NCBI GenBank assembly: GCA_048884965.1
Contig: JBHLQH010000009.1
Span: forward strand, 1-64,000
Direction: 5' to 3'
Length of the DNA stretch: 64,000 nucleotides
DNA from: Candidatus Thorarchaeota archaeon
GTDB taxonomy: Archaea > Asgardarchaeota > Thorarchaeia > Thorarchaeales > Thorarchaeaceae
The notes under the pieces are model-generated. The model was not told where the DNA came from and made no database searches. It saw only the letters and a program-made list of their open reading frames with translations. The position numbers were made by a program, and so were the translations under genes. This document shows, piece by piece, positions 1 to 14,434 of the stretch. The first letter of the stretch is position 1. Each line of letters starts with the position of its first letter.

Positions 1-18
1 ATCTCGGCCGGTCCACCA
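1..18 (+). repeat. tRNA-Ala 3' end (copy 1; could be the end of the intact tRNA gene, truncated by window)
   Basis: ATCTCGGCCGGTCCACCA = T-stem 3' strand, acceptor 3' strand CCGGTCC (U70 of the Ala G3:U70 pair), A73 and CCA. Confidence 0.85.
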
Positions 19-636
19 CTACTTCTCAAACACCAGACAGTAAAAGTGATTGTACCCAAATAGCTCAAAGCATGATTCATCCTCTTCCTGCCAACAAATG
101 ATGATCTCCTTCTCAAATCTAAGGACTTCTGAGAGCGATCGAGCCATATCCCATGCCAAGAGAGTCAGAGGTTGCTCGTCATTGGCTCCTAGATTGTATA
201 CTCCCACGATTGCTTTTCCTCCTGGTTTTAGGAGTACACCAATCATCCTGAATATCCTTTGAAGTTCCTCGAGATAGTCTTGGTAGGTTCCATCCTCCTT
301 GAATGCTGAAAGAGGATTTTTTGTTTCATCGCTATACATGAAGGTTGGAGAGGTGTACACGAAATCCAACTGAGGAATTTGATACTCGTTTAGTCTTCGT
401 GAGTCCCCATGAATGATATTATCCTTCATTTTAAGATGTGAATGCGCAACGTTGTATCGCTCCTCGTCAATCTCAATGCCAAACGGTATCCGTCCTAGTT
501 TCTCTGCAATAAAGAGAGTCGACCCGAAACCTGCGAATGGGTCAAAGACAGTATCACCTGGTTTTGTGAAGTTTTCAATGAAGTGCTCAACAAATGCTAA
601 CTCACTTTTCTTGGACAATAGAATATAACTCTTCAA
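19..636 (-). CDS. DNA N4-C/N6-A methyltransferase (N6_N4_Mtase-like)
   Basis: TKPGDTVFDPFAGFGST (SAM-binding motif I), GIEID, DFVYTSPTF (SPPY-like motif IV). Start moved to TTG at 636 because the track start at 717 lies inside the tRNA repeat. Confidence 0.8.
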   Translation of the reverse strand: MKSYILLSKKSELAFVEHFIENFTKPGDTVFDPFAGFGSTLFIAEKLGRIPFGIEIDEERYNVAHSHLKMKDNIIHGDSRRLNEYQIPQLDFVYTSPTFMYSDETKNPLSAFKEDGTYQDYLEELQRIFRMIGVLLKPGGKAIVGVYNLGANDEQPLTLLAWDMARSLSEVLRFEKEIIICWQEEDESCFELFGYNHFYCLVFEK

Positions 637-691
637 ACAATCCCAGCCTCTACACCTTGAAGCCGCACTACGAAATAAATTATCTGTATGC

Positions 692-735
692 TGGCAGGGA
701 GGAGGTCCCGAGTTCACATCTCGGCCGGTCCATCA
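692..735 (+). repeat. tRNA-Ala(GGC) 3' half, intron-less form (copy 2)
   Basis: TGGCAgGGAGGAGGTCCCGAGTTCACATCTCGGCCGGTCCAtCA. Confidence 0.9.
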
Positions 736-817
736 TCTTTTCCAATGTTGGTTTGAGATGGCTTGCGCCAAAGTCGCTTCTTTTAACAAACAATCGACCC
801 GAGAACAGCGATGTATA

Positions 818-1837
818 ATGACCCTGTCTCAGAGGACTCCACTCGTTCTGGGTTTGATAGCAATTCTAACTATAGGTCTAACTTTATCATTCGTATTTCT
901 CTCAATCCCTCCGACTGACAATAATCCTACGCATACAGAAATACGGATTGACCTGATTGGAGCGATCGATACCGGCGGCGCAGGTTTACGAGTTCATGTA
1001 GAAGGAAATCTTGCTTTTGTTATTGATACTGGAACAGAGGGTACCTATGGTCTGATCATTGTCAACATTGCCGATCCCATGCAACCTACAATTGTAGGCA
1101 CTTACCATGCTGGTGGACTCCCCTTTGCAATAGACTCTGAAGGTGATATCGTGTATATCGCAGACCAAATTGAAGGTCTTATAATTCTCAATATATCTGA
1201 TGTGGCAAATCCAACTCCCATACCCGGATTTACCGGAAGTAGATCCTATGACATAGAATTAATTGATGATTTGCTGTATCTCGCTGATGATGAGGAAGGT
1301 CTGGTTATATTGAATGCCAGTAATCCGAGTGCACCAGAATTCATTTCGAACTATGGTCAAAGATGCATCCATTTGGCAATTGAGGGTGATATTGCATATT
1401 CGACAATTCAGGGACTATCACTAATCGACATTAGTGACTCAATGCACCCATCACTCCTTTCCAACAGAGAGGACGGTACAGGATTTTGGGATCCATCTGT
1501 ATCTAACGGTATTCTCTACCTTGCAAATCACAATGGAGGTGTGGGCGAGCTCCAAGTGTATGATGTATCAGATCCTTACAATATTGAGAAGATATCAGAA
1601 TTCGACTCAGAAGGAAATTTCCAGTCTTTCGATGTACAAGGCTCCGTATTATACGCAGTAGATTTCGAAATTGGACTGTATCTTCTAGATATACGCAATC
1701 CTTCCTCTCCCTCTGAAATCGCGCTTTTCGATGGTGGTGGCAGACCTTGGGATGTAAAGGTATGTGGAGAGTATATCTATCTAGTTGGCTCCGAAGGTTT
1801 GCAAATCCTTCAGATAACAGAAGTAGCTATCTTTTGA
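818..1837 (+). CDS. Membrane-anchored LVIVD-repeat (beta-propeller) protein
   Basis: N-terminal hydrophobic helix, then repeated 'YxAD..GLxIxNISDxxNP' units. Likely start MTLSQR at 818 (track start 758). Confidence 0.85.
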   Translation: MTLSQRTPLVLGLIAILTIGLTLSFVFLSIPPTDNNPTHTEIRIDLIGAIDTGGAGLRVHVEGNLAFVIDTGTEGTYGLIIVNIADPMQPTIVGTYHAGGLPFAIDSEGDIVYIADQIEGLIILNISDVANPTPIPGFTGSRSYDIELIDDLLYLADDEEGLVILNASNPSAPEFISNYGQRCIHLAIEGDIAYSTIQGLSLIDISDSMHPSLLSNREDGTGFWDPSVSNGILYLANHNGGVGELQVYDVSDPYNIEKISEFDSEGNFQSFDVQGSVLYAVDFEIGLYLLDIRNPSSPSEIALFDGGGRPWDVKVCGEYIYLVGSEGLQILQITEVAIF

Positions 1838-1944
1838 AAGAGATGATTCTGGGGTTGACATCTTCTTCACAGGGATTATTGGTGTCATAGCAACCGCTTT
1901 TGAATCTTGAAATTGCATATTCTAGATTATTCCGATCATTGAAT

Positions 1945-1986
1945 GCATGGAGGAGGTCCCGAGTTCACATCTCGGCCGGTCCACCA
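1945..1986 (+). repeat. tRNA-Ala(GGC) 3' half, intron-less form (copy 3)
   Basis: GCATGGAGGAGGTCCCGAGTTCACATCTCGGCCGGTCCACCA followed by TTTCTTCCTC. Confidence 0.95.
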
Positions 1987-2068
1987 TTTCTTCCTCTGTT
2001 TCTCCTCGACTTATACTGTTATTAGGAAGAAGATACTGTAGTTCTGATGAAAGTTCGGGGGATAGGAT

Positions 2069-2365
2069 GTGTCCGAAGGTAAATCATTAACAATAGATGT
2101 TCCGAGTCCAAGTCAGAAACGGCAGGTCCAATTGGATTTGCTTGATGTTGGCTTTAGAGTTTCTTGGAGTACTGGCGGTAGACCCTTCCAGCAAGCATTT
2201 CGTGTTGATTTACAGATGGGTTGGATTACGCGAATTCCGACCAAAGATGCTGAAACGAAAGAGAAGCGGCGGGATGATGTTGGGATTCCGATTTGGCTTT
2301 ATAGATACATTTTGGGACATGATTTAGAGGATCTCCAGAAGGCAATACGGAAGCAAGGTAAATAG
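2069..2365 (+). CDS. Hypothetical protein (98 aa)
   Basis: ORF fills the interval between repeat copies 3 and 4; GGGGGA upstream of the GTG; no recognisable motif. Confidence 0.5.
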   Translation: MSEGKSLTIDVPSPSQKRQVQLDLLDVGFRVSWSTGGRPFQQAFRVDLQMGWITRIPTKDAETKEKRRDDVGIPIWLYRYILGHDLEDLQKAIRKQGK

Positions 2366-2372
2366 ATCGTTT

Positions 2373-2451
2373 CTTCCTTGGCACTTGCGACACACTTCGG
2401 GTGCATCCAAAGTGGAGGAGGTCTTGAGTTCGAGTTTCAGCCGGTCCATCA
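2373..2451 (+). repeat. tRNA-Ala(GGC) anticodon arm plus 3' half WITH a 37/38 intron (copy 4)
   Basis: CTTCC-TTGGCA-[CTTGCGACACACTTCGGGTGCATCCAAAG]-T-GGAGG-AGGTC...CCGGTCCATCA. TTGG (32-35) can pair with intron CCAA between two 3-nt bulges, giving a BHB motif. Confidence 0.85.
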
Positions 2452-2589
2452 TTCATTCTTTTCTTCATAAATTCGAATTGATTATGATTAAAGATACCTT
2501 TCTGAAAACAGAGAATAACAGCTGAAAAAGTTAGTCTATTATATATTTCAAGTCAATGTTATCCTAATCATCGTAAGGAGTGGTAATTA

Positions 2590-3759
2590 GTGGTCGAAGG
2601 AATTCGAAAGCAAATTTTGGCATTAATGATTGTTCTTGGAATTTTCCTTGGGATCATTGTTGTCGGAACATCTTCATACATCATGTTTAATGAAATCGAG
2701 GGAAATCCAATTTCAAATACTATATTCAAAGACCTTTCTAAATTTGGGACGATGCCAATAATTGACATGTCTGGTATGGCTTCAAACAATGAATCCTATT
2801 TCATCGATTCAAACCTTTGGAATATGCCTCTCATTTCATCATCACAAGCAAGAGAAGCAGCATATGAATTTCTGCAAAGCATTTTTAATGAGAATCAGCT
2901 TGAATCGGTTTCTGTTCAATGGCAACATTTGGTTGGAGATAATCCAACTTGGGTCATTGCCATTGAAGGATACTATATTGTCACCCTGCTATTCGTCAGT
3001 GCCATTACAGGAGAATTGATTGGATGGAATCTCTCTTCCCTTTCCCTTGACCCACCCGAATCTTATTATGAAAATGGCTCCTATATCTCAGCAAGTGTTG
3101 CTGAGGAATGTGTTTTTGATTTCTTGGCACTGCATAACTACTCAATCCCAGATGGTGCGCGATATTTGGGAGTGAATGAATATCCCTCTGATTTGAATAA
3201 TTACTACGCAATATTCCGCCATTATGAAGGTCAGTTTCCGGTTGGGCTTTATCCCCATGATTCCTCTATCAATCCAGATTACTCAAGTGAAGGTATTATT
3301 CTTCGAATAGACAAGAGGACAGGATTTATCACTCAATTTGGATATCGCTGGACGAAGATTGACCCTCCACCACCAATAGGAATCCTTCCTGAATGGGAAG
3401 CGGGGCGGATAGCTGGAGCGTTCTACGAACCTGAAAACATATCCCTCATAGATGCACAGATTCTCATTGCTCCAGTTCTAGGATTAGAGTCATCTGATGG
3501 ATCACCACAAATTCACCTAATATGGCATCTCGCAATCAATAGAGATTCGCGGTTGGTCTATGTGTATATTGATGCATATACGGGAGAAGTACTAGACGAG
3601 CAAAGAACCAATGGTAATGCACCTGCAATAATCAATACAAATGATTCACCTACTCTTTTTCCTGTAGTTATTACAAGTCTCTCGATTGGGGTAACAGTAG
3701 CTGTATCGTCAAGTTATATGATTCGTAAGAGATATCTGTTTGATTCTGGCGAAGTATAA
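2590..3759 (+). CDS. Membrane-anchored extracellular protein with YcdB/PepSY-like domains
   Basis: N- and C-terminal TM helices; repeated 'VSAITGE', 'IDKRTG', 'YIDAYTGEVL' motifs. Confidence 0.65.
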   Translation: MVEGIRKQILALMIVLGIFLGIIVVGTSSYIMFNEIEGNPISNTIFKDLSKFGTMPIIDMSGMASNNESYFIDSNLWNMPLISSSQAREAAYEFLQSIFNENQLESVSVQWQHLVGDNPTWVIAIEGYYIVTLLFVSAITGELIGWNLSSLSLDPPESYYENGSYISASVAEECVFDFLALHNYSIPDGARYLGVNEYPSDLNNYYAIFRHYEGQFPVGLYPHDSSINPDYSSEGIILRIDKRTGFITQFGYRWTKIDPPPPIGILPEWEAGRIAGAFYEPENISLIDAQILIAPVLGLESSDGSPQIHLIWHLAINRDSRLVYVYIDAYTGEVLDEQRTNGNAPAIINTNDSPTLFPVVITSLSIGVTVAVSSSYMIRKRYLFDSGEV

Positions 3760-4249
3760 TCCCAGATACTATGAATATTTAGTGGAGCTAGGACAAAGCA
3801 TGGCAGATCAAGAGGATTCAAAGAACGACATTGAGCTAGATTTAGCAGGCCGGACTCTACGAGTATACTGGTACATGCTACAAAATAAGGAACCTCTGGG
3901 TCGTCTCGAAATCCAAAGAGGAACAAAACTATCAAGCGCCAGTCTTGCAGAGTATCATCTGAGAAAACTCATTGGAATGGGTCTTGTAGAGAAGAATATC
4001 TATGGTGAATATGTAATTAGTAGGACTGTACAAGTTGGAGTAATGCGTTTCTATATGATTTTTAGGAGTAATATGATACCTCGTTTTCTTCTGTATATCT
4101 CATTCTATATATCTATACTAATTGCTCTTCTGGTATTCTTCAACAATATACCCCAATCAATTATGTTTCTTATTGTTACGATTCTTGCCTTTGGAATCAT
4201 TTCATCTCTCATCGAAAGTGTAATTTTATGGAAAACATCTCCTACCTAA
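3740..4249 (+). CDS. Winged-HTH transcriptional regulator with two C-terminal TM helices
   Basis: GRTLRVYWYML...LSSASLAEYHLRKLIGMGLVEK wHTH, then two hydrophobic segments; start may be ATG 3800. Confidence 0.75.
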   Translation: MILAKYNPRYYEYLVELGQSMADQEDSKNDIELDLAGRTLRVYWYMLQNKEPLGRLEIQRGTKLSSASLAEYHLRKLIGMGLVEKNIYGEYVISRTVQVGVMRFYMIFRSNMIPRFLLYISFYISILIALLVFFNNIPQSIMFLIVTILAFGIISSLIESVILWKTSPT

Positions 4250-4363
4250 TTTACTTCTATCATCCTAAAATTGATTGAATCTAATTTGCAGATCCAATGA
4301 ATGAAAAAATCTTATTAGATAGTTCATCTGTTACAAAGCCACCTCGTGGTGGAGGGATGAACT

Positions 4364-6151
4364 GTGATTAGAAATAGAGCTAGGAAACGAAACTATGCGC
4401 AGAATGCCATTCTGATAGTATTATTGTTTGTCACTTCTACAATGATGTATGTAGGATTTGCATCATCTTATAGTACCTTATTGCATCATGATGAAGGCAA
4501 CGATGAATTGAACGAATATGCTGCGTCTATTGCCAAAGTTGTTATGGACTCCACAGAAAATCTCAGATTGGAGGATGTTTATGATACGACTGATCCGCAG
4601 ACTAGTAGCACTGTAAGATGTATGTCTTGGACTCTAACAGGTGCGGATTTGATAGAACTTCGCATTGATTTGGAAACTGGTTTACTCGTTAGCTATATCG
4701 ATACAACAAATCATCCAGACACTCTATACTATATCTCTGAAATATCAGATCAGAATGCATTAGAAAGAGCATACACTTTCTTTGAAACTCTCTCACAATT
4801 GTGTCTGTTCTCTTGGCCGCAAAACTGTGAATATGCTGGTGTACTGAGTCTTGAGTCTTACTGGACTTTTGTATGGCATCATATTATTGATGGAATTAAG
4901 GTAGTTGATGATTCACTTAGAATCAGAATAGACCCTTACACAGGCAATGTGCGGTACCTTCAGATACAATGGAGCAACTACGATTCAATTTCATCAATGT
5001 ATGTAAATCCAGATGTGACTTCTAATGTCGTGTCTGAAATCATCAGTACAAACGATGTCATAATTGAACAATCAGGTCCATTCTTATTCAAGAATGAGGA
5101 CACGCGACAATACGATTTGAGTTGGAATTTCGATGTTAAAGTTGACTCACAGCTGATTGCTTCAACTTATGTGAGTACAAGCACTGGTTCATTTCTGTCT
5201 ATTGACACAACAAATAGCTACTACGGTGAATTCGTATTAGCACAGGGTCGTTCTGGTCTTACAGGTACTGGTTCTTTGGACCCAGCTCATACCGCAGCTC
5301 TAGATTGTGCTGGATATCGTCTTGAGAGCGATAACTATCACAAGGATACTTGGGATAACACAGTTATGCTCTCAGAGATGGTGAGCTATTTAGATAATGC
5401 AAATATCATCATTTTTGAAGGACATGGGTATGGAGGTTCTGGCGTTGGGTCATGGATGACCATTTATGGATATGATTTCGGGGGGGAAGACGTACCAGAA
5501 GATATGTCCCAGGCTGAGATTTTCTATACCGCTTCATGCGAAGGAGGATGGACAACTCAATATCCGCAGTATGAAAACAAATTCATTGCAAATATGGCTC
5601 TTAATGCTGGTGTAAAGGCTTACCATGGTTTTTTGGGTTCGCCAAAAACCGAGCCAGAAAGTGACTACTGTAAATATTTTTGGGCTGCAGCAGCAAATGG
5701 TAAGACTTTTGCAACTTGTCAGGAGTATGCCGGAAGCTATGTTAGCAACGTAACACTTGGTAATGTACCCTCAGCATTATATGGCGCCAGAAGTAACTCA
5801 CTTTCAAAGGTAGATGTAAGCTACAACCAAATCCTAGGATATGTTCATGTAAATGACCATCTGTCTTTTGACAATGAGCCTTGCTGGCAAGTTGATTCCG
5901 ATCAACTCAGATTTTATTCCTATGAACTTGCATATTACAGCATTTATGTTGATCCCGAACGCAGCGACTTTGATGTTGCCTTTAAGGTCTACAACAAATA
6001 CTATCAACTGATCGCAACTGTAAATTCTCATGGATCTGGTGGTACTGAATCATATTGTTTCTCAGGCGGCTCAGGATTCTATTATATCAAAATCTATATC
6101 GCATCTTCATACGGCGGAATATATGACCTAGATGTGTTCGTTTCTTCCTAA
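4364..6151 (+). CDS. Secreted protein: PepSY-like N-terminus, clan CD (caspase/gingipain-fold) domain, C-terminal PPC-like domain
   Basis: Signal/TM at N-terminus; IDLETG and IDPYTG motifs; IIIFEGHG...FYTASC His/Cys dyad pattern; DFDVAFKVY...GGTE...GFYYIKI PPC-like end. Confidence 0.6.
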   Translation: MIRNRARKRNYAQNAILIVLLFVTSTMMYVGFASSYSTLLHHDEGNDELNEYAASIAKVVMDSTENLRLEDVYDTTDPQTSSTVRCMSWTLTGADLIELRIDLETGLLVSYIDTTNHPDTLYYISEISDQNALERAYTFFETLSQLCLFSWPQNCEYAGVLSLESYWTFVWHHIIDGIKVVDDSLRIRIDPYTGNVRYLQIQWSNYDSISSMYVNPDVTSNVVSEIISTNDVIIEQSGPFLFKNEDTRQYDLSWNFDVKVDSQLIASTYVSTSTGSFLSIDTTNSYYGEFVLAQGRSGLTGTGSLDPAHTAALDCAGYRLESDNYHKDTWDNTVMLSEMVSYLDNANIIIFEGHGYGGSGVGSWMTIYGYDFGGEDVPEDMSQAEIFYTASCEGGWTTQYPQYENKFIANMALNAGVKAYHGFLGSPKTEPESDYCKYFWAAAANGKTFATCQEYAGSYVSNVTLGNVPSALYGARSNSLSKVDVSYNQILGYVHVNDHLSFDNEPCWQVDSDQLRFYSYELAYYSIYVDPERSDFDVAFKVYNKYYQLIATVNSHGSGGTESYCFSGGSGFYYIKIYIASSYGGIYDLDVFVSS

Positions 6152-6161
6152 ACATGCAGAA

Positions 6162-6187
6162 GGATGGTGAATTTTCGTTCACCATCC
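6162..6187 (+). terminator. Hairpin downstream of 4364..6151
   Basis: GGATGGTGAA-TTTTCG-TTCACCATCC, perfect 10-bp stem 10 nt after the stop. Confidence 0.6.
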
Positions 6188-6239
6188 CTCCCAATCCAAT
6201 TCAGCACTCCATTTAGATACCTAATAGGAAACTAGTGAA

Positions 6240-7007
6240 ATGAAATCAACCATGATTCCCAAAGGCTTACAAGAACTTGGCATTCTCTCGCTTCTCAATG
6301 AACTTGAATATAATAGCAAATCTGTGTATCTTACAGGTTCTTGGGCACGAGGGACTAATACTTCTCTGAGCGACATTGACCTTGATATCTTGGCATGCGA
6401 AGATATACCAAAGGAAATCATTCTAGGAACAATCACACCCTATCAATCCAATAAAATTGTTATTGATGCGAAGATTTTCACACCTATCGAGTTTACTCAG
6501 CTCCAGAAGGGGCCCTCACATTTCTTTTTTTGGACTCGCTTCCAAGATGGACTTCATATTAGTGGAGATTCTCTCTCTCTGAAACATGATTATGAACAAA
6601 CTCGCCGCTTCATCGAGGTTAGCATGGATAGAATGAACGAAGCAATTTCACTTGTTCATTCTGGTAGATATCTGGCAACGGTGCTATTCCTAATGTATGA
6701 GTCTTTATGTGGGTCTTACTTTTTGGAATCCTACCTCTTAAATGGTAAGAGGATTCAATACATAAAAGAGGAGTATTTGAGAAATCACTGTGGGAATCTT
6801 TTCTCTCTTTGTCGACAAAACTACTATACGCATGTAAGAGCACAGTTCCAAGATTCTCTCGATTGGCCAATAAGAATCCGTTTTCGCAGTGATCTGAAAA
6901 TGAAGAAGGATGCTTTTCAAACACTTAAGGATGTAATATATCAGGTCGACAATCATGTCATGAATGTCTATAATAGTGCCCTCAGGAAGATTGATAGTAT
7001 TGTATAG
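6240..7007 (+). CDS. Pol-beta-type nucleotidyltransferase (MNT) domain protein with helical, possibly HEPN-like, C-terminus
   Basis: VYLTGSWARG...SDIDL signature. Confidence 0.7.
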   Translation: MKSTMIPKGLQELGILSLLNELEYNSKSVYLTGSWARGTNTSLSDIDLDILACEDIPKEIILGTITPYQSNKIVIDAKIFTPIEFTQLQKGPSHFFFWTRFQDGLHISGDSLSLKHDYEQTRRFIEVSMDRMNEAISLVHSGRYLATVLFLMYESLCGSYFLESYLLNGKRIQYIKEEYLRNHCGNLFSLCRQNYYTHVRAQFQDSLDWPIRIRFRSDLKMKKDAFQTLKDVIYQVDNHVMNVYNSALRKIDSIV

Positions 7008-7022
7008 TTTCATATGTTAGAA

Positions 7023-7105: not shown

Positions 7106-8074
7106 TTACTTTGGAATCAATTGTTTCTCTTTTAGTTTCAGATAAGCTGCCCGACAGGACTCCACATCATGAGAAAAGAGATACTGGGCAAATTCAAGAT
7201 AGTCGAAGCCCTCGACTTCTTCGATGAATCCCGCCTTTTGCATCCCATATTGAGAAAGCCCCCACATCGCTGTGAAAAGCATCAACATGAATTTCATTCC
7301 TGAGAGCCTTATCCACGAGTCATTACTGACTTCAGTGAAGTAGCATTGCAGCATGAATTCCTCTAATTCAGGTGGAATGGGACCAATACTATCGTGAGTA
7401 TATACGAGTGTCGCCAGGTCGTAGTAGATGTCTCCCATTCCTGCGAACTCCCAATCAATTATCGTGATTTTATGCTGTTCATCTGAGTATAGATAGTTCA
7501 CGGCAACGAGGTCATTATGGCAGAACCGTAGCCAATCCGATTGATCCTTTCTTTGATCCTCTTCTATCTCTCTCATCGTATCCAATAGAGCTTCGAAATC
7601 ATAAGGTAAAGGGATATCATATTCCTTCGCGGTTCGAGTATAGGCTTCGACACGATTGAAGGGTGAGAACCTACCTTCAATAGCTGGGAGAGAATGCAAT
7701 TGCTTGACTGTCTGTGTCAATAGGCGTATGTTCTCCGGCCTTCGATACTCATCATGCGTCCAATGGCGTCCATCTATCCAACGAGTTACAAGATGCCCTT
7801 CTGGTTTACTGAAATAGATTACCTCTGGTCCAATCCCTACACTGGAAGCTACTTGTAATGCCTCATATTCGAAATCACGATTGATACCAAGTTTCTCAGC
7901 ATTCTCTCTACTGATTCGCAAAACATATTGATTCTTACCTGCTGTTATCTGATAATTCGCATTAGTAAGACCATCGATTTTTTCCACAATTAGTTCTTTG
8001 ACACCCTTCAATGCTGGTATCCTATCAGTAATTGATTGTATCTCGGGATTCATTCTTCCTTTCAGATATCCCAA
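7106..8074 (-). CDS. Choline/ethanolamine kinase-like phosphotransferase (APH superfamily)
   Basis: GLTNANY, YVLRI, FCHNDL..N (Brenner motif), IIDWEFAGMGD...DLA; start may be ATG 8053. Confidence 0.9.
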   Translation of the reverse strand: MGYLKGRMNPEIQSITDRIPALKGVKELIVEKIDGLTNANYQITAGKNQYVLRISRENAEKLGINRDFEYEALQVASSVGIGPEVIYFSKPEGHLVTRWIDGRHWTHDEYRRPENIRLLTQTVKQLHSLPAIEGRFSPFNRVEAYTRTAKEYDIPLPYDFEALLDTMREIEEDQRKDQSDWLRFCHNDLVAVNYLYSDEQHKITIIDWEFAGMGDIYYDLATLVYTHDSIGPIPPELEEFMLQCYFTEVSNDSWIRLSGMKFMLMLFTAMWGLSQYGMQKAGFIEEVEGFDYLEFAQYLFSHDVESCRAAYLKLKEKQLIPK

Positions 8075-8117
8075 AATCGGTGGTTTTAAAGCTGTGTTTC
8101 AACGTCAAATCACATTC

Positions 8118-8159
8118 GTATGGAGGAGGTCCCTAGTTCACATCTCAGCCGGTCCACCA
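8118..8159 (+). repeat. tRNA-Ala 3' half, intron-less form (copy 6)
   Basis: GtATGGAGGAGGTCCCtAGTTCACATCTCaGCCGGTCCACCA then TTATTCTTCTC. Confidence 0.9.
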
Positions 8160-8259
8160 TTATTCTTCTCATCCGTAGGTCTAACTACAGCATGGTCTAG
8201 GGATCAGACTTCGAAATTCGACTGGAAGATTTAACTACCACGTTTCTAAGAACTAATCG

Positions 8260-9153
8260 ATGATTGAAATCAAGCAAATTGGAGAGCCTAAGGTTCTTGA
8301 CGATAATTCCAATGAAGCAAACTCATACACCTTTCATGCCAGTATGTCCACAATGAGAGCGCGATTCAGCAACTCCTATGAGGGTTACCATGGGAATCCT
8401 GTCTGGGACTTGACAGTCTATGCAGATAGGCTGATTGAGCGGAACATTGAGCCTCTTTGGGAAGGTCTTGAGGAACATGCACAGTGCTTTCAACTTCCGA
8501 TGAACTATATTCCATTTGGACATGATGGAGGCACTTTCTGCTATAATCTTCTTGAAAGTGGGACCCACATCTTTGATTTCGTTGAAGATACACGGACTAC
8601 GTCGGAGGTCCGAGGAATCTGGTCTATCCTATGCGCACCAGAGTCTCCTATGATATTGATAGGAGGTACCAGTAAAGCCACACGTCAAAAGGGCGTCTAC
8701 ATCATTGACTACTCAGGAAAAGTAGTTCGCAGAATCGAGGTCCTAGATGATACGCCTGATGCCTACCTTTCCTGGCTGATGTACAAACCTACAATTCTAT
8801 CTATCAACAAGAAATCCAGTGCACATAAGACATGGTTATCTGAGATAGATATTGAAACTGATGAGATTCTTCAGAAAAGAGCGATTGATCCCCAAGATAT
8901 CCTTCCTTATGATGATCTCTCATATTCACAGTATCAAGAAAAAAGTGGCGCTCTTAGGACTGAAACTGGCTATGCACTTGATGGATTACTCAGGAATAAA
9001 TGGTATGATTACAGGTATAATTATGGTCGCAAGACACTCCGGTTGAAAATATACCACCCACCTATTGAGTACCTTCTATCAGCGGACCGTCCTGAAACCA
9101 GCAACGTTCAAGGAATCCTATACGAATATACCTTCAAGATAGAGTTCCTCTAA
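8260..9153 (+). CDS. Hypothetical protein (297 aa)
   Basis: Long ORF filling the interval between copies 6 and 7; no motif recognised. Confidence 0.6.
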   Translation: MIEIKQIGEPKVLDDNSNEANSYTFHASMSTMRARFSNSYEGYHGNPVWDLTVYADRLIERNIEPLWEGLEEHAQCFQLPMNYIPFGHDGGTFCYNLLESGTHIFDFVEDTRTTSEVRGIWSILCAPESPMILIGGTSKATRQKGVYIIDYSGKVVRRIEVLDDTPDAYLSWLMYKPTILSINKKSSAHKTWLSEIDIETDEILQKRAIDPQDILPYDDLSYSQYQEKSGALRTETGYALDGLLRNKWYDYRYNYGRKTLRLKIYHPPIEYLLSADRPETSNVQGILYEYTFKIEFL

Positions 9154-9231
9154 TGCAGGAACACGACCTTGGATTGTGATCGTCCCACGGAAACAATCAG
9201 ATATATCTATAGCAATAATCCTGAGTCTGTG

Positions 9232-9257
9232 GGAGGTCCCGAGTTCACATCTCGGCC
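9232..9257 (+). repeat. Truncated tRNA-Ala fragment (variable loop and T-arm only; copy 7)
   Basis: GGAGGTCCCGAGTTCACATCTCGGCC, exact 26-nt match to the other copies. Confidence 0.85.
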
Positions 9258-9389
9258 AAATCTCTCTTGCACATCAATGGCGAAGATGTGGTGGTATATA
9301 TTCACTGGAATCTATCTAATAATTCTCTCAATCTTCATGCTCGTTGGAATTACATATACGTGATTAAATGATGTGTCTATGAGCATGAA

Positions 9390-11435
9390 TCAATCGGTAA
9401 CAGCTTTCTGCTTGATCTGCCTGTAGTAAGCAAATCCAAGGTAGATTCCTATTGCTGTCCCGATACATATAGCCACGTCTAAAGATGGACCTAGACTAGT
9501 AGTAGAAACCACTACAAGAACAGAGTCACTGGCTTCATTCCAGCAAGTATCACGAATCACAATAGTAAAGATGTAGATTCCTGGTATGAGTCCGGTTAGA
9601 TTTATCGTAATCCTACTTTCATTCCAGATACCGGATTGCACAACAAAACCGTTGCAGAGGATCGTGTAATTTAGAGGATGAGCATCATTAGCATTCCATT
9701 CTATAACTTGGTCTAACTCGTTCAGACTGCAGTAAATGTTCTCAGGAGTATCTATTGTTGGTAGAACTGTATCTGCTTTCATCGGGAAATGATCGATACC
9801 ATCACCATGTCCATCAGTTACGTAATATCCCACACCAGAATAATCTCCCCAGTAGTTACCTAGAGAACCGTTGTCCCACCAATTCATGCCCTCAATATTT
9901 ACAGCAGACGAAAAGAGATCATCTACAGCATTTGATCTGATATTCCAAGCTATCGTGTTGTTGTAAACAAGATTGTAGTCACTATCATGATCGAGCTTGA
10001 TTCCCCAATTGTGATTGTTTGTGATGAGATTGCTGAAGATTGTGTTATTGCTGGATTCGCTAAATGTGATACCGTAGCCATAAGTTTCGTTTCCAATCAC
10101 CTTGTTATTATAGATTAAGATAGAATTAGAGGAAAGACAATACAAACCAACATTATTTCCCATAAATTCAGAATTCATAAATATCAAATACTCAGAATAC
10201 GTGATACGTACGGCCATGTAATTCCATCTAAAGGATGCGTCCTGAATCAAACAATCGACTGAATGTTCAATGCATAAAGCTTCCTCTGCATCTGTGATAT
10301 GGATATCTGTAAGAGTTCCTCTGGAAGTACCTACAATATACAGAGGATATCTACCTCCTGAAATTGAGATGTTCTCTAGTTCTATATCATCCGCCCATAG
10401 TAAGTATATACCTCTCCATGATATATTGTTCATGGTGAGATTCCTGATACTTAGTTTCGAAACTTCTTGACATTTCACTCCATTAGTGCACATCTCGAAG
10501 TATGTATCATGTATTTGGATATCCTCTGACTGATAGATGTCGATTGCAGAGTCAGTTCTGATAAAAACACCACTTGAGAGAACAATCTCGGAACAGTTGA
10601 ACAACAGAATGTACCCATAGTCATTCATATTCACGGCTTTCGACTTTTGTTCAATGAACACTCCAAGTGGTTTCCCATTGACTGTAGTATTAGTGAGTGT
10701 ATGATTGAAATCCTCTTTCCTAGATCCTACTATTTCGATGCTGTCATTGACAAAAGCATTGTTACTTATCACTGCATTTTCAGAGGTAATCATATAGCAA
10801 CCAAATTCATTATCACGAATTACACAGCATTGTATTGTAATATTATCACATGTGTTGATGAAAATTCCGTTGCGATTTTCAAATAATGTAGCATTTTCGA
10901 TTCTTGTTTCATCAGAAGAATGGAGAAATATTCCATATGAGTTGTTGTGAATTTTGCAATTCATGATGGTAGTCTTGTCTTGCAACACATCTATTGCTCG
11001 TAATGAATGTCCATACAATTCTGTATTGTTAATAACCGAATTTGGAGAATTGCGGAGATATACCCCAGTGGAACTGGATATCAATAGGCATCCATTGATT
11101 ACAAAATGCAAACTCACAGATTCGATGGATATACAACACGATTCATCCTCAATTCGATAATTACTGATGTAGAAAGGATTGCTAGCCGATCCATTTCCTA
11201 ACCACCCTTCATTACCAGCTTGTTCAACGATATCTGTGTCTGATGTAATTACAATTGCGTCATGCAGGATTTGACTCGAAATAAAGGATTCAGTTACAAT
11301 AGAGTTATCGATGTTATCATGAGTTGATTGAAACGGATCAAATTCAACCAAAGGTGTAATAGAAAATAGGACTATTAGCAATATAATTACTGTAGGGATC
11401 CAACAATTCCCTCCTCCATTGATATTCAAATCCAC
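9390..11435 (-). CDS. NosD/CASH right-handed beta-helix surface protein with C-terminal Ig-like domain and TM anchor
   Basis: GNGSASNPFYI, many 'N..GI.L..S.N..I.NN' coils, GNYWGDYSG...D.FP, C-terminal TM plus basic tail. Confidence 0.85.
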   Translation of the reverse strand: MDLNINGGGNCWIPTVIILLIVLFSITPLVEFDPFQSTHDNIDNSIVTESFISSQILHDAIVITSDTDIVEQAGNEGWLGNGSASNPFYISNYRIEDESCCISIESVSLHFVINGCLLISSSTGVYLRNSPNSVINNTELYGHSLRAIDVLQDKTTIMNCKIHNNSYGIFLHSSDETRIENATLFENRNGIFINTCDNITIQCCVIRDNEFGCYMITSENAVISNNAFVNDSIEIVGSRKEDFNHTLTNTTVNGKPLGVFIEQKSKAVNMNDYGYILLFNCSEIVLSSGVFIRTDSAIDIYQSEDIQIHDTYFEMCTNGVKCQEVSKLSIRNLTMNNISWRGIYLLWADDIELENISISGGRYPLYIVGTSRGTLTDIHITDAEEALCIEHSVDCLIQDASFRWNYMAVRITYSEYLIFMNSEFMGNNVGLYCLSSNSILIYNNKVIGNETYGYGITFSESSNNTIFSNLITNNHNWGIKLDHDSDYNLVYNNTIAWNIRSNAVDDLFSSAVNIEGMNWWDNGSLGNYWGDYSGVGYYVTDGHGDGIDHFPMKADTVLPTIDTPENIYCSLNELDQVIEWNANDAHPLNYTILCNGFVVQSGIWNESRITINLTGLIPGIYIFTIVIRDTCWNEASDSVLVVVSTTSLGPSLDVAICIGTAIGIYLGFAYYRQIKQKAVTD

Positions 11436-11514
11436 TCTCTCCGAAATTCGTTTACTTTGAAAGTTCTTAAATTTATACTACAGTAGTTGAACATGGACAC
11501 ATGCTAATTTCATT

Positions 11515-11554
11515 TCCTTGGCATGGAGGAAGTCCCGAGTTCAAATCTCAGCCG
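11515..11554 (+). repeat. tRNA-Ala(GGC) anticodon arm and T-arm, intron-less form, decayed 3' end (copy 8)
   Basis: TTCC-TTGGCAT-GGAGG-AaGTC-CCGAG-TTCAAAT-CTCaG-CCG; the 7-nt anticodon loop with GGC identifies Ala. Confidence 0.88.
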
Positions 11555-11567
11555 ATTCAGATCCATC

Positions 11568-12095
11568 TCATGTTTCTATCCTATTGCCTATCGAATAATA
11601 ATTGAAATCTCCGCCGATCGCCCATATCATAGGTTGGACTTTTCTCAAGTCCATTTTTCCATCCAGTAGCACATCTTGATCAGCATATGATGCCACCACC
11701 TCTCCAATTATACCATCATTAGGGTCATAGTCTAATATCTCTGTGACTCTGCACTCCATATTCAATGGGCAATCCGATATCATTGGAGCCGTATCTAATT
11801 CACCATAGAAGACCTCGAAGAGCGAAGACTTGTCGTAGTCCCTACCAGATTTGCTTCCACAGATATTCACCTTCTCCAACATGTCCTTAGAGGGGATATT
11901 CACACTGAAGGTCATATTCTCATGGATGCCAATCCTTGTGTACCGTTTCTTGTACAGGCTAAAGAATATGTGTTTTCCAAAGTTGAATGGAGAAATATAG
12001 CCAATCACTAGAAAATTCGGTCGGTTATCGACCATAGAGCCTACCAAGGCCACTGGAAGAGGATTCAACAGATTGCCTCTTACTACTTCCTTCAA
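11568..12095 (-). CDS. Flavin reductase family protein (flavoredoxin-like)
   Basis: P.PVALVGS, FSVNIP, CGSKSGR..DK, APMI.DCP.NMEC.V. Confidence 0.9.
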   Translation of the reverse strand: MKEVVRGNLLNPLPVALVGSMVDNRPNFLVIGYISPFNFGKHIFFSLYKKRYTRIGIHENMTFSVNIPSKDMLEKVNICGSKSGRDYDKSSLFEVFYGELDTAPMISDCPLNMECRVTEILDYDPNDGIIGEVVASYADQDVLLDGKMDLRKVQPMIWAIGGDFNYYSIGNRIET

Positions 12096-12124
12096 AGTCA
12101 GTCCTCCATCACAATCCTATCATC

Positions 12125-12727
12125 CTATCCCCTCAAAGGAATGCCATATGCCTCCGAAAACGCAATTTGATGCAATGCATTTGTTGAACGAGGCGTTGGC
12201 TCACCATTCGGTATCCCTAATGTGACTAATGCAACGATATCTACATTGTCAGGTATCCGAAGTGCTGCTTTTACAACGCCAACATCATCCGTGTTTCTAG
12301 AATCAAGCATTGCGACCCAGCAAGATCCATATCCTAGGGCAGTTGCAGCTAGGACAAGATGCTCTGTAGCGATCATAGTGTCTTGTACATGCCACATTGA
12401 CGGATTATTTGGACAACAAGAAGATTCTCTATTTGCTAATGCCATGACTACTGCCTTTGCTTTGGCTATGAATCCCTGCCTTCCTGCAACAAGAGAGAGT
12501 AGCTTGATAGTTTCTGGTTCCTTTACAATCAGATACTGCCAAGGTTGAGTGTTGTTTGTGGACGGCGCAAGACGAGCCGCTTCAATCATCTTCATTATGT
12601 CTGCATCGGGAATATCGATATTCTTGTATTCCCTTATACTCCTTCGATTTCTCACAACCTGAAAGAAATCGGATTCATTACTATCTGCAATCTCAGAGGA
12701 TTTCTGCATCATATCACCATCAAACAT
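12125..12727 (-). CDS. Nitroreductase family protein
   Basis: RRSIREY, EAARLAPS.NN.QPW, LAATALGYGSCW. Confidence 0.92.
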   Translation of the reverse strand: MFDGDMMQKSSEIADSNESDFFQVVRNRRSIREYKNIDIPDADIMKMIEAARLAPSTNNTQPWQYLIVKEPETIKLLSLVAGRQGFIAKAKAVVMALANRESSCCPNNPSMWHVQDTMIATEHLVLAATALGYGSCWVAMLDSRNTDDVGVVKAALRIPDNVDIVALVTLGIPNGEPTPRSTNALHQIAFSEAYGIPLRG

Positions 12728-12802
12728 CCATATCTATTATCGGATGCCCAATATATCTGACGTCCAATATATAAACATGATAATCTAAGCAAGAAATCAC
12801 TT

Positions 12803-12850
12803 CATGGAGAAGTATGGGAGTCCAAATTTCAAGTCCGGATCAGGCGACCA
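12803..12850 (+). repeat. Decayed tRNA-Ala fragment fused to the 3' tip of a different tRNA (C1:G72/A73, Tyr-like)
   Basis: CATGGAGaAG.....GAGTcCAAATtTC resembles the Ala repeat. 12828-12850 TTCAAGT-CCGGA-TCAGGCG-A-CCA has exact tRNA 7+5+7+1+3 spacing. Confidence 0.5.
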
Positions 12851-12920
12851 CTACTTTGTTCTTCCACTAATCGTAGGCTCTCTAATTCATAACCAAATCT
12901 ACATTGAGCGAATTTCATTC

Positions 12921-13448
12921 TCACCCTTCGCGATAGACTCTCATAACCTCGAGGACTCTGTTACCCTCTTTTGTGGAGCATTTGTTGCATGTTGGTCGTT
13001 CAGCTGAAATAAGATGGTATCCAACGTGTGCGGTTCTATTTGATGTTTGATTCGTGGATACTACTAGCTCGCATGAAGTAAGGTACAATTCTTCCTCATG
13101 CGTTCTCTCCCAAATTCTGGCAACATGTATTTGCTTTCCAGTACTTGTGACATATAGCTTTCTTGGAGGGAATTTTCTACGAACGAATATACCTCCAACA
13201 ATTACTGAGATTGCAAGTAAAAGCAAGTAAGGAAGGATGTGGAGATCATATCGATAGGGAGGGGTCCATGTGTAGTACTGAATATTCCAATAGCCGGGTG
13301 ACAGCAAGAAGACAAACAGTAGGATTATCCCCAGATACACCAAGGATGTACCGAATGCACGATTCCATTCATCATCCATTTGCTTTACCCTCAACCTATC
13401 ATACCCGCGAAAGCATTTCATGCTTTCTACGCGTCTGCGTGCGCTCAA
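12921..13448 (-). CDS. Hypothetical membrane protein (2 TM)
   Basis: Two hydrophobic segments; HV..., C, CNKC residues in the C-terminal part; start uncertain. Confidence 0.55.
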   Translation of the reverse strand: MSARRRVESMKCFRGYDRLRVKQMDDEWNRAFGTSLVYLGIILLFVFLLSPGYWNIQYYTWTPPYRYDLHILPYLLLLAISVIVGGIFVRRKFPPRKLYVTSTGKQIHVARIWERTHEEELYLTSCELVVSTNQTSNRTAHVGYHLISAERPTCNKCSTKEGNRVLEVMRVYREG

Positions 13449-13619
13449 AAGCTGGGGTATGCTATACGCATTAGGAAAAGGAGATCGACTAAGTCTTCCA
13501 TTCTGAGTTCAGAGATATCATTTGAAATACTGGGAGTACGCCAATGCAGGTTTGGATGGAATAAAGGGGGTTTCTATCAAAGAAATCTCAAGTGTCCACC
13601 TTAGTTCATCATCTGACGA

Positions 13620-14282
13620 CTAGGGATAGCACAATTCCCAATCTGAATGATATGAATGGACTAGACTCATCAACTCAAGATATGCATCCTCTGAGAAGAA
13701 TGGTCTAGGGCAAGTTGCTTCTCCATCGTAGACTGCGAAGTGTATATGTGCCCCGCCTCCTATAGCAAGAAAATGACCGATCGTGTCCCCCTTGGCTACC
13801 CAATCACCTACCTCGATTTCAAGCATTTCTATTTGTCGGTCTGCATCTGTTGAGTTCGTAGTCCATGGTTCAAAGACATACCCGATCTGAATTGACTCAT
13901 TGAATCTGATCGAAACATGAATCATGTATATATTCTCAGTTGGACCTGTATCAGTCCAATGAATCTCCTCCACAAGTCCCGGTGCAGCGGCTATCACTTC
14001 AGAGTCATTCACAAATGCAAAATCGAGCCCGTTATGAGTAGCCCCCCAAGGACAGTTTGTACTCTCGCTATATCCGCCATTCCAATTTAGGATGTCAGAT
14101 TGGTTCGTGTAGATGATGCCCATGTAGTTCAGGTTAGCAGAATCATAACGCCCTTCGTTGTCAAATGTATTCTCTCCATTTGGCGGATCTGGATTAATCG
14201 GAACGCCTCCAAATTGGATATACAAAACAACCCCAATGCAAATTATGACCAGTAATATGATACAGCTAGTTCTTCTTCGCAT
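13620..14282 (-). CDS. Membrane-anchored M23-family peptidase-like protein
   Basis: N-terminal TM; HNGLD, VIAAAPGLV, VGDWVAKGDTIG, AHIHF. Confidence 0.8.
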   Translation of the reverse strand: MRRRTSCIILLVIICIGVVLYIQFGGVPINPDPPNGENTFDNEGRYDSANLNYMGIIYTNQSDILNWNGGYSESTNCPWGATHNGLDFAFVNDSEVIAAAPGLVEEIHWTDTGPTENIYMIHVSIRFNESIQIGYVFEPWTTNSTDADRQIEMLEIEVGDWVAKGDTIGHFLAIGGGAHIHFAVYDGEATCPRPFFSEDAYLELMSLVHSYHSDWELCYP

Positions 14283-14329
14283 AATTCTCTGCTATAGAGA
14301 AATGAATTCAAAAGGTTGTTCATTATCCC

Positions 14330-14434
14330 TCATGATACCAAACCGGTAAACAGAGGACAGTAGATGTGGTCGTAGCCATACATATCCGGGCCATCCCCTT
14401 GTCCCTTGTCGAATCCATGCCAACAAATGGGAAT
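14330..14434 (-). pseudogene. C-terminal relic of a DNA methyltransferase paralogous to 19..636
   Basis: Minus-strand frame IPICWHGFDKGQGDGPDMYGYDHIYCPLF versus the MTase end IIICWQEEDESCFELFGYNHFYCLVF; in-frame stop two codons upstream (14438-14440). Confidence 0.7.

Follow-up and report, generated by a model that had tools for sequence, protein, structure and literature searches.

Partial tRNA-Ala(GGC) copies divide a stack of small accessory-gene units in Thorarchaeia

Introduction

Integrons, including sedentary chromosomal arrays and integrase-less attC clusters (CALINs), hold long arrays of mostly single-gene cassettes with one site each, and their attC sites are imperfect palindromes unrelated to the platform. 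Cis-mobilizable elements (CIMEs), which occur with ICEs in streptococci, are att-flanked modules without recombination genes that lie one after another at the 3′ end of a tRNA or other gene; an integrase supplied in trans can mobilise them. Within a tRNA gene, the anticodon loop and the T-loop are the two classical integration sublocations. The tycheposons of Prochlorococcus integrate 3′ of a specific tRNA, where newer elements push older ones outward, building islands of niche and defence cargo in which partial tRNA copies separate the elements (Hackl et al., bioRxiv 10.1101/2020.12.28.424599). Archaeal plasmids and viruses with SSV-type or pNOB8-type integrases also re-use one site in tandem (PMC6563490); their att identity spans ~20–70 bp of the tRNA 3′ part, and the integrase-encoding elements measure ~5–40 kb (PMC6563490; PMC7253208; PMC8371274).

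Here we describe small accessory-gene units stacked over 14 kb behind a tRNA-Ala(GGC) gene at positions 1–14434 of a 64,000-nucleotide stretch of a Thorarchaeia (Asgard) genome (the window; genome G000). We see about an even chance that the stack grew by accretion at an att site formed by the tRNA 3′ part and served by a tyrosine-type enzyme supplied in trans. A search of the literature found no published description of such arrays.

Anatomy of the array

The window contains seven clear copies of the tRNA-Ala(GGC) 3′ half, all in one orientation (Table 1). All seven were matched on the plus strand by an nhmmer profile of the 38-nt segment GGAGG...CCA (E values 1e-8 to 1e-14), and their starts as tabulated include the anticodon-loop or intron part. 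Genome-wide, the repeat is restricted to this array and to true tRNA-Ala genes. An earlier note, made from the window alone, had counted at least eight copies; the first of these, at position 1, is no fragment but the 3′ end of the intact tRNA gene. The note had also read two decayed traces, at 12803 and about 13583. The former falls below statistical detection alone and is supported by its positional orthology to a clear fragment bordering the flavin-reductase unit of G003 (4151–4188). The latter is not significant, and no fragment is detectable at 14300–14434.

The intact tRNA-Ala(GGC) gene, which the earlier note expected left of the window, lies at the array's proximal end on contig C91 (4806–4942), whose final 77 nt are identical to window 1–77. 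The part outside the 18 nt listed in Table 1 spans C91:4806–4924 and contains two introns, one in the D-loop and one at 37/38. ARAGORN missed this two-intron gene; after in silico removal of the introns, its commonest call was tRNA-Ala(ggc), and the gene can be aligned with the intronless orthologues of G005, G024, and G014.

Each unit carries between one and four accessory genes, none of them a recombinase, and has a partial tRNA copy at its tRNA-distal end. Units measure 0.4–4.6 kb, hold genes in both orientations, and are tightly packed, as first described. The methyltransferase (MTase) stop codon (19–21) immediately follows the CCA, and the kinase stop lies 18 nt past a CCA. The cargo genes appear intact. 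None of the ten units exceeds the genome mean GC content of 0.441; past ~14.4 kb, GC rises to 0.45–0.48. The four-gene unit 3 holds no internal fragment, even by an nhmmer --max search. Because an independent NCBI assembly and Logan contigs from three runs show the identical unit order, the array is no assembly artefact; its structure is uniform in the four assemblies that sample the G000 population. These data support the picture of a low-GC accessory island divided up by att-type partial copies of the tRNA.

Table 1. Features of the tRNA-Ala(GGC) array, in window coordinates
Feature	Position	Strand	Description	nhmmer match
tRNA-Ala(GGC) 3′ end	1–18	+	T-loop end, T-stem 3′ strand, acceptor 3′ strand, CCA	
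Unit 0	19–691	−	Small N6_N4-type DNA methyltransferase, convergent with tRNA; PF01555 1.5e-16; PADLOC MTase_II	
Fragment 1	692–735	+	Intron-less, anticodon loop (CTGGCAG) to CCA; C at T-loop position 57 (C57)	698–735
Unit 1	736–1944	+	LVIVD-repeat beta-propeller protein (758–1837); PF08309 1.7e-25	
Fragment 2	1945–1986	+	GCAT + 38 nt; C57	1949–1986
Unit 2	1987–2372	+	98-aa protein (2069–2365), family-less; no Pfam match	
Fragment 3	2373–2451	+	Intron type: anticodon stem 5′ strand, loop, 37/38 intron, 3′ half; T-arm decayed	2414–2451
Unit 3	2452–7023	+	PepSY protein (2590–3759), weak-HTH protein (3740–4249), 595-aa protein (4364–6151), nucleotidyltransferase (6240–7007)	
Fragment 4	7024–7087	+	Begins within intron sequence, then full 3′ half; C57	7050–7087
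Unit 4	7088–8117	−	APH/choline-kinase-type phosphotransferase (7106–8074); PF01636 8e-23	
Fragment 5	8118–8159	+	Two mismatches; C57	8122–8159
Unit 5	8160–9228	+	297-aa protein (8260–9153), in no known family	
Fragment 6	9229–9257	+	Truncated, without acceptor 3′ strand; C57	9232–9257
Unit 6	9258–11514	−	681-aa right-handed beta-helix/NosD-like protein (9390–11435); PF13229 1.8e-44	
Fragment 7	11515–11560	+	Intron-less, from anticodon stem (TTTCCTTGGCAT); A57; 3′ end decayed	11525–11560
Unit 7	11561–12802	−	Flavin reductase (11568–12095), nitroreductase (12125–12727)	
Fragment 8	12803–12850	+	Heavily decayed	
Unit 8	12851–13582	−	175-aa protein (12921–13448); no Pfam match	
Possible last fragment trace	13583–13603	+	Doubtful, by-eye reading	
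Unit 9	13604–14434	−	M23-peptidase-like protein (13620–14282); PF01551; distal end of low-GC island	

Comparison with described systems

The array resembles integrons in its long run of mostly single-gene units, one terminal recombination site per unit, shuffling between arrays, and accessory or defence content. In contrast to an integron, it has no intI (PF00589 is absent from G000, the array contigs, and the genes upstream on C91), and attI and attC are replaced by the tRNA gene as primary site and its partial copies as bounding repeats. Nor are there co-oriented promoterless cassettes behind a Pc: the MTase, kinase, beta-helix, and reductase genes lie on the minus strand and the LVIVD, PepSY, and 297-aa genes on the plus strand, so each gene must bring its own promoter. 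The earlier likening to integron cassettes therefore holds as an analogy of behaviour only.

With tycheposons the array shares docking on the tRNA 3′ side, partial tRNA copies between neighbours, and accessory or defence cargo. However, a tycheposon encodes its own recombinase, tyrosine or large serine type, in most cases alongside a replication module, and fragmented integrases persist in the islands, whereas no Thorarchaeia unit has a recombinase and most are single-gene units of 0.4–2 kb. Neither the hallmark integrase nor primase/helicase replication modules were found in the array cargo of G000 or G024. Like CIMEs, the units are att-flanked tandem modules without recombination or transfer genes, every one being cargo-only; CIMEs differ in being few per site, larger, and visibly derived from ICEs of the same species, while no helper element was identified for the Thorarchaeia arrays.

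Archaeal tRNA-integrating elements match the array at its borders, in identity blocks over the tRNA 3′ part, direct repeats, and site re-use: an intact tRNA is accompanied by seven or eight direct partial 3′ copies. Their own integrase is missing from the array, as are the int(N)/int(C) halves that SSV-type elements leave at their borders; six-frame family searches of the whole genome returned no integrase-like sequence.

Recurrence across Thorarchaeia

At least 13 Thorarchaeia genomes, spread over five genera, have the same architecture behind tRNA-Ala(GGC) (G000, G002, G003, G005, G009, G024, G033, G020, G104, G076, G107, G093, and G088), as do metagenome contigs. Fifteen arrays hold ~85 fragments, the one opposite-strand match being another tRNA gene. 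Arrays reach 8–16 copies, and units are mostly 0.4–2 kb with a single gene. Six genomes have an empty site, a tRNA without an array (G018, G014, G019, G010, G021, and G025). Fragments fall into two sharp length classes, ~38–48 nt (genera g1, g4, and g15) and ~22–25 nt (g3 and g6), which correspond to anticodon-loop-to-CCA and T-loop-to-CCA att sublocations.

Comparison between arrays, a check proposed in the earlier note, supports units that behave as modules, recurring in different arrays beside different neighbours, and places the breakpoints at fragment ends. G009 and G024 have a single unit in common, 94% identical in nucleotides with edges exactly at fragment ends. The 98-aa unit with its intron-type right fragment is also found among other neighbours in G009:C9 and metagenome contig L109, and in G002 a homologue of the PepSY gene makes up a unit by itself. 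In L124, a close relative, the MTase unit (89.6% nucleotide identity over window 19–738) runs straight into the M23 unit; all nine units of window 739–13610 are absent, the breakpoints are fragment ends, and a different unit occupies the tRNA side of the MTase unit. Recombination at internal copies is therefore needed in addition to that at the intact tRNA. The M23 gene of L124 comes straight after a decayed fragment, comparable to the doubtful trace at 13583, and M23 homologues also mark the distal array ends of G020 and G024 (77–79% aa). Homologues of the MTase abut the CCA of a tRNA-Ala fragment likewise in other genera, three genera in all.

Part of the array is old. Unit 7 in its entirety is 69% identical in nucleotides to G003 2916–4061, unit 5 has a homologous unit in G003 (56% aa) whose right fragment is intron-type, and unit 8 has a weak homologue in a G002 unit. 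Units common within the genus are collinear and 53–69% identical, which indicates that the array is partly inherited vertically rather than recently captured.

Source of the recombination activity

The partial tRNA copy of a unit serves as its att site. In the reading we prefer, this copy would recombine with the same segment of the tRNA, or with an older partial copy, and insert the unit; insertion would rebuild the intact tRNA and leave the partial copy as the distal border. Repetition would stack units, and recombination between any two copies would lose or exchange those in between, so that accessory and defence-type genes form a variable island. Each identity block begins at the anticodon loop or T-loop and extends to the CCA, which makes a tyrosine site-specific recombinase the most likely chemistry. 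Since the enzyme is encoded neither in the array nor detectably in the genome, we infer that it acts in trans, for example from the integrases of transient plasmids or viruses.

No recombinase for the array was identified. Main ORFs of at least ~100 aa in window 19–17858 include no recombinase, transposase, or phage family, as the earlier note had stated. Its suggestion of an upstream recombinase is refuted for G000, where neither the 4.8 kb of C91 upstream of the tRNA encodes an integrase nor the whole MAG (95.7% complete) a match to PF00589, PF16795, or PF00239. The relatives' arrays lack the same three families, and PF00589 is absent from G000, G003, G005, G076, G104, G093, G033, and every array contig. 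Integrases occur in only 24 of the 61 sampled family genomes, and none of 30 family integrase loci adjoins a tRNA-Ala fragment. Scans of viral contigs found no attP-bearing free element, and those of viral, genome, and metagenome sequences no helper element with a tRNA-Ala att site. A test for a T-loop crossover from the T-stem half phase of neighbouring fragments gave no signal.

The missing integrases bear on a very unlikely alternative, that each fragment marks a past integrase-bearing plasmid or provirus of 5–20 kb whose integrase and backbone were deleted, the units being immobile remnants. Tandem re-use of tRNA sites with decay to partial tRNAs and fragmented integrases is documented for archaeal elements and Prochlorococcus islands (PMC6563490; 10.1101/2020.12.28.424599), and fragment quality in G000 falls roughly with distance from the tRNA. 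Yet no integrase, whole or fragmentary, turned up in any of the ~85 units of the 15 arrays, even in those nearest the tRNA, presumably the most recent; the units are trimmed to whole genes instead of pseudogene debris, and identical small units recur in different arrays beside different neighbours.

That several array-bearing genomes, G000 among them, lack every recombinase family searched would suit homologous recombination alone, an unlikely but more serious candidate. Host machinery would use the 22–48-nt identities and the tRNA as portable homology; circles formed between direct repeats would re-integrate Campbell-style, and double crossovers after DNA uptake would swap units. Breakpoints at or inside the repeats are expected from this too. 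So is homogenisation among copies, which fits the C57 shared by five G000 fragments and missing from the tRNA, and gene conversion is suggested by orthologous fragments that match their own genome's tRNA (CCGAG/CTCGG in G000 versus GCGTG/CACGC in G003). Against it, 22 nt is short for efficient homologous recombination, and both the first linkage of a new cargo gene to a tRNA fragment and the two sharp left-edge classes at classical integrase sublocations are left unexplained. In favour of the preferred reading, the arrays hold att types foreign to the resident tRNA: intron-less and intron-bearing copies stand side by side in one array, the G000 tRNA has a 37/38 intron yet five fragments lack it, the G024 tRNA gene is intron-less yet its array includes intron-type fragments, and T-stem variants inside an array differ from the resident tRNA.

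A dedicated host system, in which an unrecognised recombinase would insert single-gene cassettes, each with its own promoter, at conserved-gene 3′ ends as a functional integron analogue built on another principle, is distinctly unlikely. It could account for arrays that are family-wide and present even in genomes without any known recombinase, and for short direct repeats of gene 3′ ends around small inserts elsewhere in G000, such as that of actin (C3:192137/192931). It sits poorly with the empty sites in six family genomes, no candidate enzyme emerged, and nothing conserved adjoins the arrays. A broader formulation is possible, though tentative: a Thorarchaeia gene-cassette system of self-expressed one-gene modules docked at conserved-gene 3′ ends, with partial copies of the docking gene as recombination sites, driven by an unrecognised recombinase or, with no dedicated integrase, by host recombination. 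If true, the archaeal lineage nearest to eukaryotes would have an integron analogue that arose independently. Upstream of the tRNA, C91 encodes a HEAT-like protein, NosD, PEMT, and others, and the family-wide neighbour of the arrays is an rpl37e-LSM-PUA-helicase block.

Partial tRNA-Ala(GGC) copies behind an intact gene

A repeat search, together with an nhmmer profile built on the 38 nt GGAGG...CCA, revealed seven clear copies of the tRNA-Ala(GGC) 3' half, all in the same orientation and with E values of 1e-8 to 1e-14, confirming that co-oriented copies partition the region as the earlier note had described. The copies consist of the variable loop AGGTC, the T-arm CCGAG-TTCACAT-CTCGG and the acceptor strand CCGGTCC with U70, A73 and CCA; (T)TGGCAT, from the anticodon loop, lies 5' of several. 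ARAGORN calls no tRNA on the array. The supposed copy at window position 1 is not a fragment. The window is the start of contig C9, and a second contig of the same genome (G000), C91 (5,001 nt), ends in 77 nt identical to window 1-77 and holds a complete tRNA-Ala(GGC) gene at C91:4806-4942, continuing into window 1-18, so this copy is the intact gene's own 3' end. The gene carries introns in the D-loop (~29 nt) and at 37/38 (~29 nt), and ARAGORN misses it even with intron search. The array begins directly behind it.

Looking left of the window, as had been proposed, thus recovered the intact gene but no recombinase; the upstream genes on C91 encode a HEAT-like protein, a NosD protein, a PEMT/ICMT methyltransferase and a small orphan. 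Of the two decayed traces reported beyond the clear copies, that at 12803 is not significant alone and coincides in position with a clear fragment of the orthologous unit in the related genome G003, while that at 13583 is doubtful. A profile scan of the whole 4.09-Mb metagenome-assembled genome (MAG) places the repeat in the array and nowhere else, besides real tRNA-Ala genes and weak T-arm matches in other tRNAs, so it is clustered at the tRNA locus rather than scattered.

The assembly break falls exactly after a T-loop position polymorphic for A and C, and C9 thus starts with ATCTCGG. The break suggests a second assembly-graph path, a fragment with C at position 57 (C57) followed by the methyltransferase (MTase) unit, which would mean a subpopulation with another unit in front; a relative's contig, L124, has such an arrangement. 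Intron number in the relatives' tRNA-Ala(GGC) is zero, one or more, and G076 and G104 have an apparent extra T-arm insert (L116 ~1340-1395; L110 ~100-157). Three complete tRNA-Ala(TGC) genes stand in tandem at ~850-nt spacing in G088 (L112, G088:C146, 2357-4087), a duplication of whole genes, not of fragments.

Cargo and limits of the island

The cargo genes, assigned to families by Pfam, look whole and fill their units. Trimming is as tight as claimed earlier: the MTase stop codon directly follows CCA and the kinase stop lies 18 nt beyond CCA. No recombinase, transposase or virus family was found by Pfam among the G000 cargo, in line with the earlier note.

Fragments and cargo of the G000 array (window positions)
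Feature	Position	Orientation	Assignment
Clear copy 1	698-735	co-oriented	nhmmer
Clear copy 2	1949-1986	co-oriented	nhmmer
Clear copy 3	2414-2451	co-oriented	nhmmer
Clear copy 4	7050-7087	co-oriented	nhmmer
Clear copy 5	8122-8159	co-oriented	nhmmer
Clear copy 6	9232-9257	co-oriented	nhmmer
Clear copy 7	11525-11560	co-oriented	nhmmer
Small N6_N4 DNA methyltransferase (MTase)	19-717	minus	Pfam
LVIVD propeller protein			Pfam
98-aa orphan protein
PepSY protein, weak-HTH protein, 595-aa protein, nucleotidyltransferase (four-gene unit)
APH/choline-type kinase			Pfam
297-aa orphan protein
NosD-like beta-helix protein			Pfam
Flavin reductase + nitroreductase (one unit)
175-aa orphan protein
M23-like peptidase (distal cargo gene)	13620-~14285

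The ten units have GC contents of 0.37-0.44, none of them above the genome mean (0.441), and the value rises to 0.45-0.48 past 14.4 kb, which supports the right-hand island limit placed at 14434. A 1,889-aa subtilase gene (Peptidase_S8, window 18493-24162) lies between the island and conserved V4R genes. In G014 the sequence downstream of the tRNA corresponds to window 24590-27058, so older insertions that lack recognisable att copies may lie between 14.4 and 24.4 kb.

The array of G024 (L042, G024:C140 20001-40000, at 790-15287) is rich in defence-type cargo, with a HerA-like ATPase and its 904-aa partner abutting the tRNA, an HNH/type IV restriction-like protein, a PDC-S02 PD-(D/E)XK nuclease, a Schlafen/AlbA_2 protein and an AbiV-like HEPN protein.

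Recurrence of the array in related genomes

A tRNA-Ala(GGC) gene with partial copies behind it, all in one orientation and spaced by 0.4-5 kb, likewise occurs in the genus of G000, g1 (G002, 6 copies in 6 kb; G003, 4; G005, 1), in genera g4 (G024, up to 15 copies; G009; G033), g15 (G020), g3 (G104, 9 copies; G076, 7; G107) and g6 (G093, G088), and on several metagenome contigs, for a total of ~85 fragments in 15 arrays. Just one match lies on the opposite strand, and it is another tRNA gene. G018 represents the empty state, with the tRNA 170 nt from an rpl37e-LSM-PUA-helicase block; this block adjoins the tRNA in G014 and G019, lies ~2 kb from it in G024, and occupies window 36350-40173 in G000. 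No array was found within 20 kb of the tRNA in G010, G021 and G025.

Compared with G020:C19 (L067 12328-13843), the whole G000 segment of tRNA, array and M23 gene lies inverted against the PEMT/ICMT methyltransferase gene (window 13620-14282 and C91:3515-4174). A second inversion distinguishes G000 from G014, G019 and G024, here between the tRNA-bearing segment and the rpl37e-LSM block. Both inversions have their endpoints where the array ends.

Search for a recombinase and for free elements

Six-frame searches of G000 (MAG completeness 95.7%) gave no match to PF00589 (Phage_integrase), PF16795 (archaeal Phage_integr_3) or PF00239 (Resolvase). PF00589 matches are present in only 24 of the 61 sampled family genomes, which argues that tyrosine recombinases here are sporadic and MGE-like, not core Xer; G009, G024 and G077 are examples of family genomes with tyrosine integrases. 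No array contig has a PF00589 match; the whole genomes of G003, G005, G076, G104, G093 and G033 have none, and no tRNA-Ala fragment was detected near any of the 30 PF00589 loci scanned in the family. The family-wide neighbour block (rpl37e, LSM, PUA, helicase, SepF) and the genes upstream on C91 encode housekeeping or surface proteins. Two scans of viral contigs with strict and degenerate att patterns returned no free att-bearing element, and scans of genome and metagenome contigs returned only true tRNA-Ala genes and arrays already found. A dedicated system whose recombinase escapes recognition seems quite unlikely to us.

Two other candidate engines were considered. The MTase was rejected and is taken as cargo, since it occurs in only 26 of the 86 family genomes and is missing from the other g1 arrays. 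IS200/IS605- or Helitron-like hairpin-end elements, considered by analogy, were set aside; direct duplication of the 3' part of the target would be better accommodated by Campbell-type integration, and the cargo showed no HUH genes.

Units are modular and exchanged at the fragments

Three arrays (G000, G009:C9 and the metagenome contig L109) contain a unit of 0.43-0.5 kb made up of the 98-aa gene and its intron-type right fragment; its neighbours differ each time, and identities are 72-75% (nt) and 73-82% (aa). Outside arrays (L107, L108) the gene stands together with a 71-aa gene. The two g4 genomes G009 and G024 have a single unit in common, 94% identical in nucleotide sequence, the homology running from just after one fragment's end to the next fragment's CCA; all else differs. 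The MTase family is nearly confined to Thorarchaeota and patchy there. Of the 13 copies in its closest clade, 8 lie, like the G000 copy, convergent to a tRNA-Ala fragment that is 0-4 nt from the stop codon, even though the arrays concerned carry short T-loop fragments.

The nearest relative found (GCA_016840885.1, contig JAEORL010000332; L124) has the order fragment, unknown 232-aa unit, fragment, MTase unit and, directly, the M23 gene. Its MTase unit is 89.6% identical (nt) to window 19-738, including a decayed C57-type fragment, and its M23 gene is 72% identical (aa) to that of G000. Nine units of G000 (window 739-13610, 12.9 kb), set between two fragments, have no counterpart in L124, which for its part has one extra unit on the tRNA side; the breakpoints lie a few to ~20 nt from fragment ends. 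Cassette content and order thus differ between relatives, and the difference requires recombination, by deletion or insertion, at internal copies as well as any at the tRNA. That ordinary integrase-bearing elements decayed in place appears very improbable, since no integrase remnant was found in ~85 units and units recur in different arrays.

Parts of the array are old and inherited. Units common to G000 and G002 (PepSY gene) or G003 (297-aa and flavin-reductase units) are diverged, with 53-56% aa and 66-69% nt identity, yet collinear. For the homologous 297-aa units, G000 and G003 differ in the type of right-hand fragment, which argues for turnover at the repeats too. Four assemblies of the G000 population are structurally identical, and the runs SRR30758811-13 yield identical contigs.

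The 71-aa gene that follows the 98-aa gene is conserved at L107 2385-2991 and L108 489-1039; the array version is the first gene only, and the pair possibly forms a two-gene module. At L107 the 98-aa gene adjoins a REase-ARP protein.

Two att lengths and foreign fragment types

The fragments fall into two classes. In g1, g4 and g15, most copies begin in the anticodon stem-loop or within the 37/38 intron and, at 38-48 nt or more, extend to CCA. Nearly all of those in g3 and g6 cover only the stretch between T-loop and CCA (22-25 nt), and their left edge is sharp. Both lengths match the classical sublocation classes of tRNA-targeting tyrosine integrases reportedly set out by Williams in 2002.

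Although the G000 gene has a 37/38 intron, five of its fragments show a spliced-type loop (GCAT|GGAGG) and two, at 2373 and 7024, contain part of the intron; G024, whose gene has no intron, has intron-type fragments in its array that are almost the same in sequence as the G000 intron. Arrays are also internally mixed in their T-stem variants. Different fragment alleles therefore coexist in one array, indicating that the att parts came from donors with other tRNA-Ala alleles, of other lineages. A retro-origin of the intron-less fragments is unnecessary and was rejected, because G005, G024 and G014 have intron-less tRNA-Ala(GGC) genes. Five or six G000 fragments have C at T-loop position 57, where the intact gene has A; either related donors carried the variant or the copies homogenise each other. 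Crossover mapping, by pairing each fragment's 5' T-stem half with the 3' half of its tRNA-proximal neighbour, looked suggestive in G002 and was dropped after the totals for 57 fragments (155 in phase, 154 proximal, 151 distal) gave no signal.

The anatomy is what many rounds of Campbell-type insertion at a tRNA att site, plus recombination among the copies they leave, would produce. A unit would enter as a small circle, an integrase would act in trans, and repeated insertion would stack units whose copies then recombine with each other. Homologous recombination alone agrees with the absence of any enzyme found and with the signs of homogenisation; it leaves the first linkage of cargo to fragment and the sharp fragment edges unexplained, and we regard it as unlikely. 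Site-specific chemistry of the tyrosine-recombinase type, supplied in trans, is the reading we favour, because the fragments fall into two sharply defined sublocation classes and identities of 22-25 nt are very short; its chances seem roughly balanced.

Relation to known systems

The proposal of integron-like capture at a tRNA is partly supported: att-type copies and modular units stand, and no integrase was found. The array fails every defining feature of an integron and resembles one in behaviour; it is best described as probable tRNA-site accretion without an integrase in cis, served by an enzyme that we infer. CIME accretion in streptococci and integrase-less attC clusters both involve integrase-less cassettes, an idea they share with the array. 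The closest described system is the tycheposon tRNA island of Prochlorococcus, in which older elements are pushed outward by new ones and partial tRNAs and broken integrases occur throughout; unlike the units here, tycheposons encode their own recombinase and replication genes (bioRxiv 10.1101/2020.12.28.424599). In the archaeal literature, tRNA sites undergo tandem re-use by integrase-bearing elements of 9-23 kb or more (PMC6563490 among sources), not stacking of one-gene units as here. We found no published description of such arrays; keyword searches in two Asgard mobile-element papers met none.

Asgard archaea have large genomes rich in acquired genes, and the routes of acquisition are poorly known. 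If the reading as accretion is true, a family-wide site where single accessory or defence genes pile up, are swapped at short tRNA-derived repeats and need no integrase in cis would offer a concrete, testable mechanism for Asgard gene flux, and cassette-type capture, so far tied to bacterial integrons, would reach archaea with a different kind of recombination site. The arrays mark the place of strain-variable defence genes in uncultured Thorarchaeia, and the att classes provide defined substrates for finding the responsible enzyme.

A scan of the other G000 tRNAs (24 nt, at most 4 mismatches, 20 kb on either side) gave only cross-matches between neighbouring tRNA genes. Other direct repeats of 35-118 nt, 0.6-9 kb apart, occur in G000 at C3:192137-192236 and 192931-193031, C83:735/2845/3498, C17:1/2182/10998 and C2:103361/104849, and in one of these cases the 3' end of an actin-like gene is present twice, on either side of a small insert. 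Such repeats may reflect the same kind of docking at other genes.
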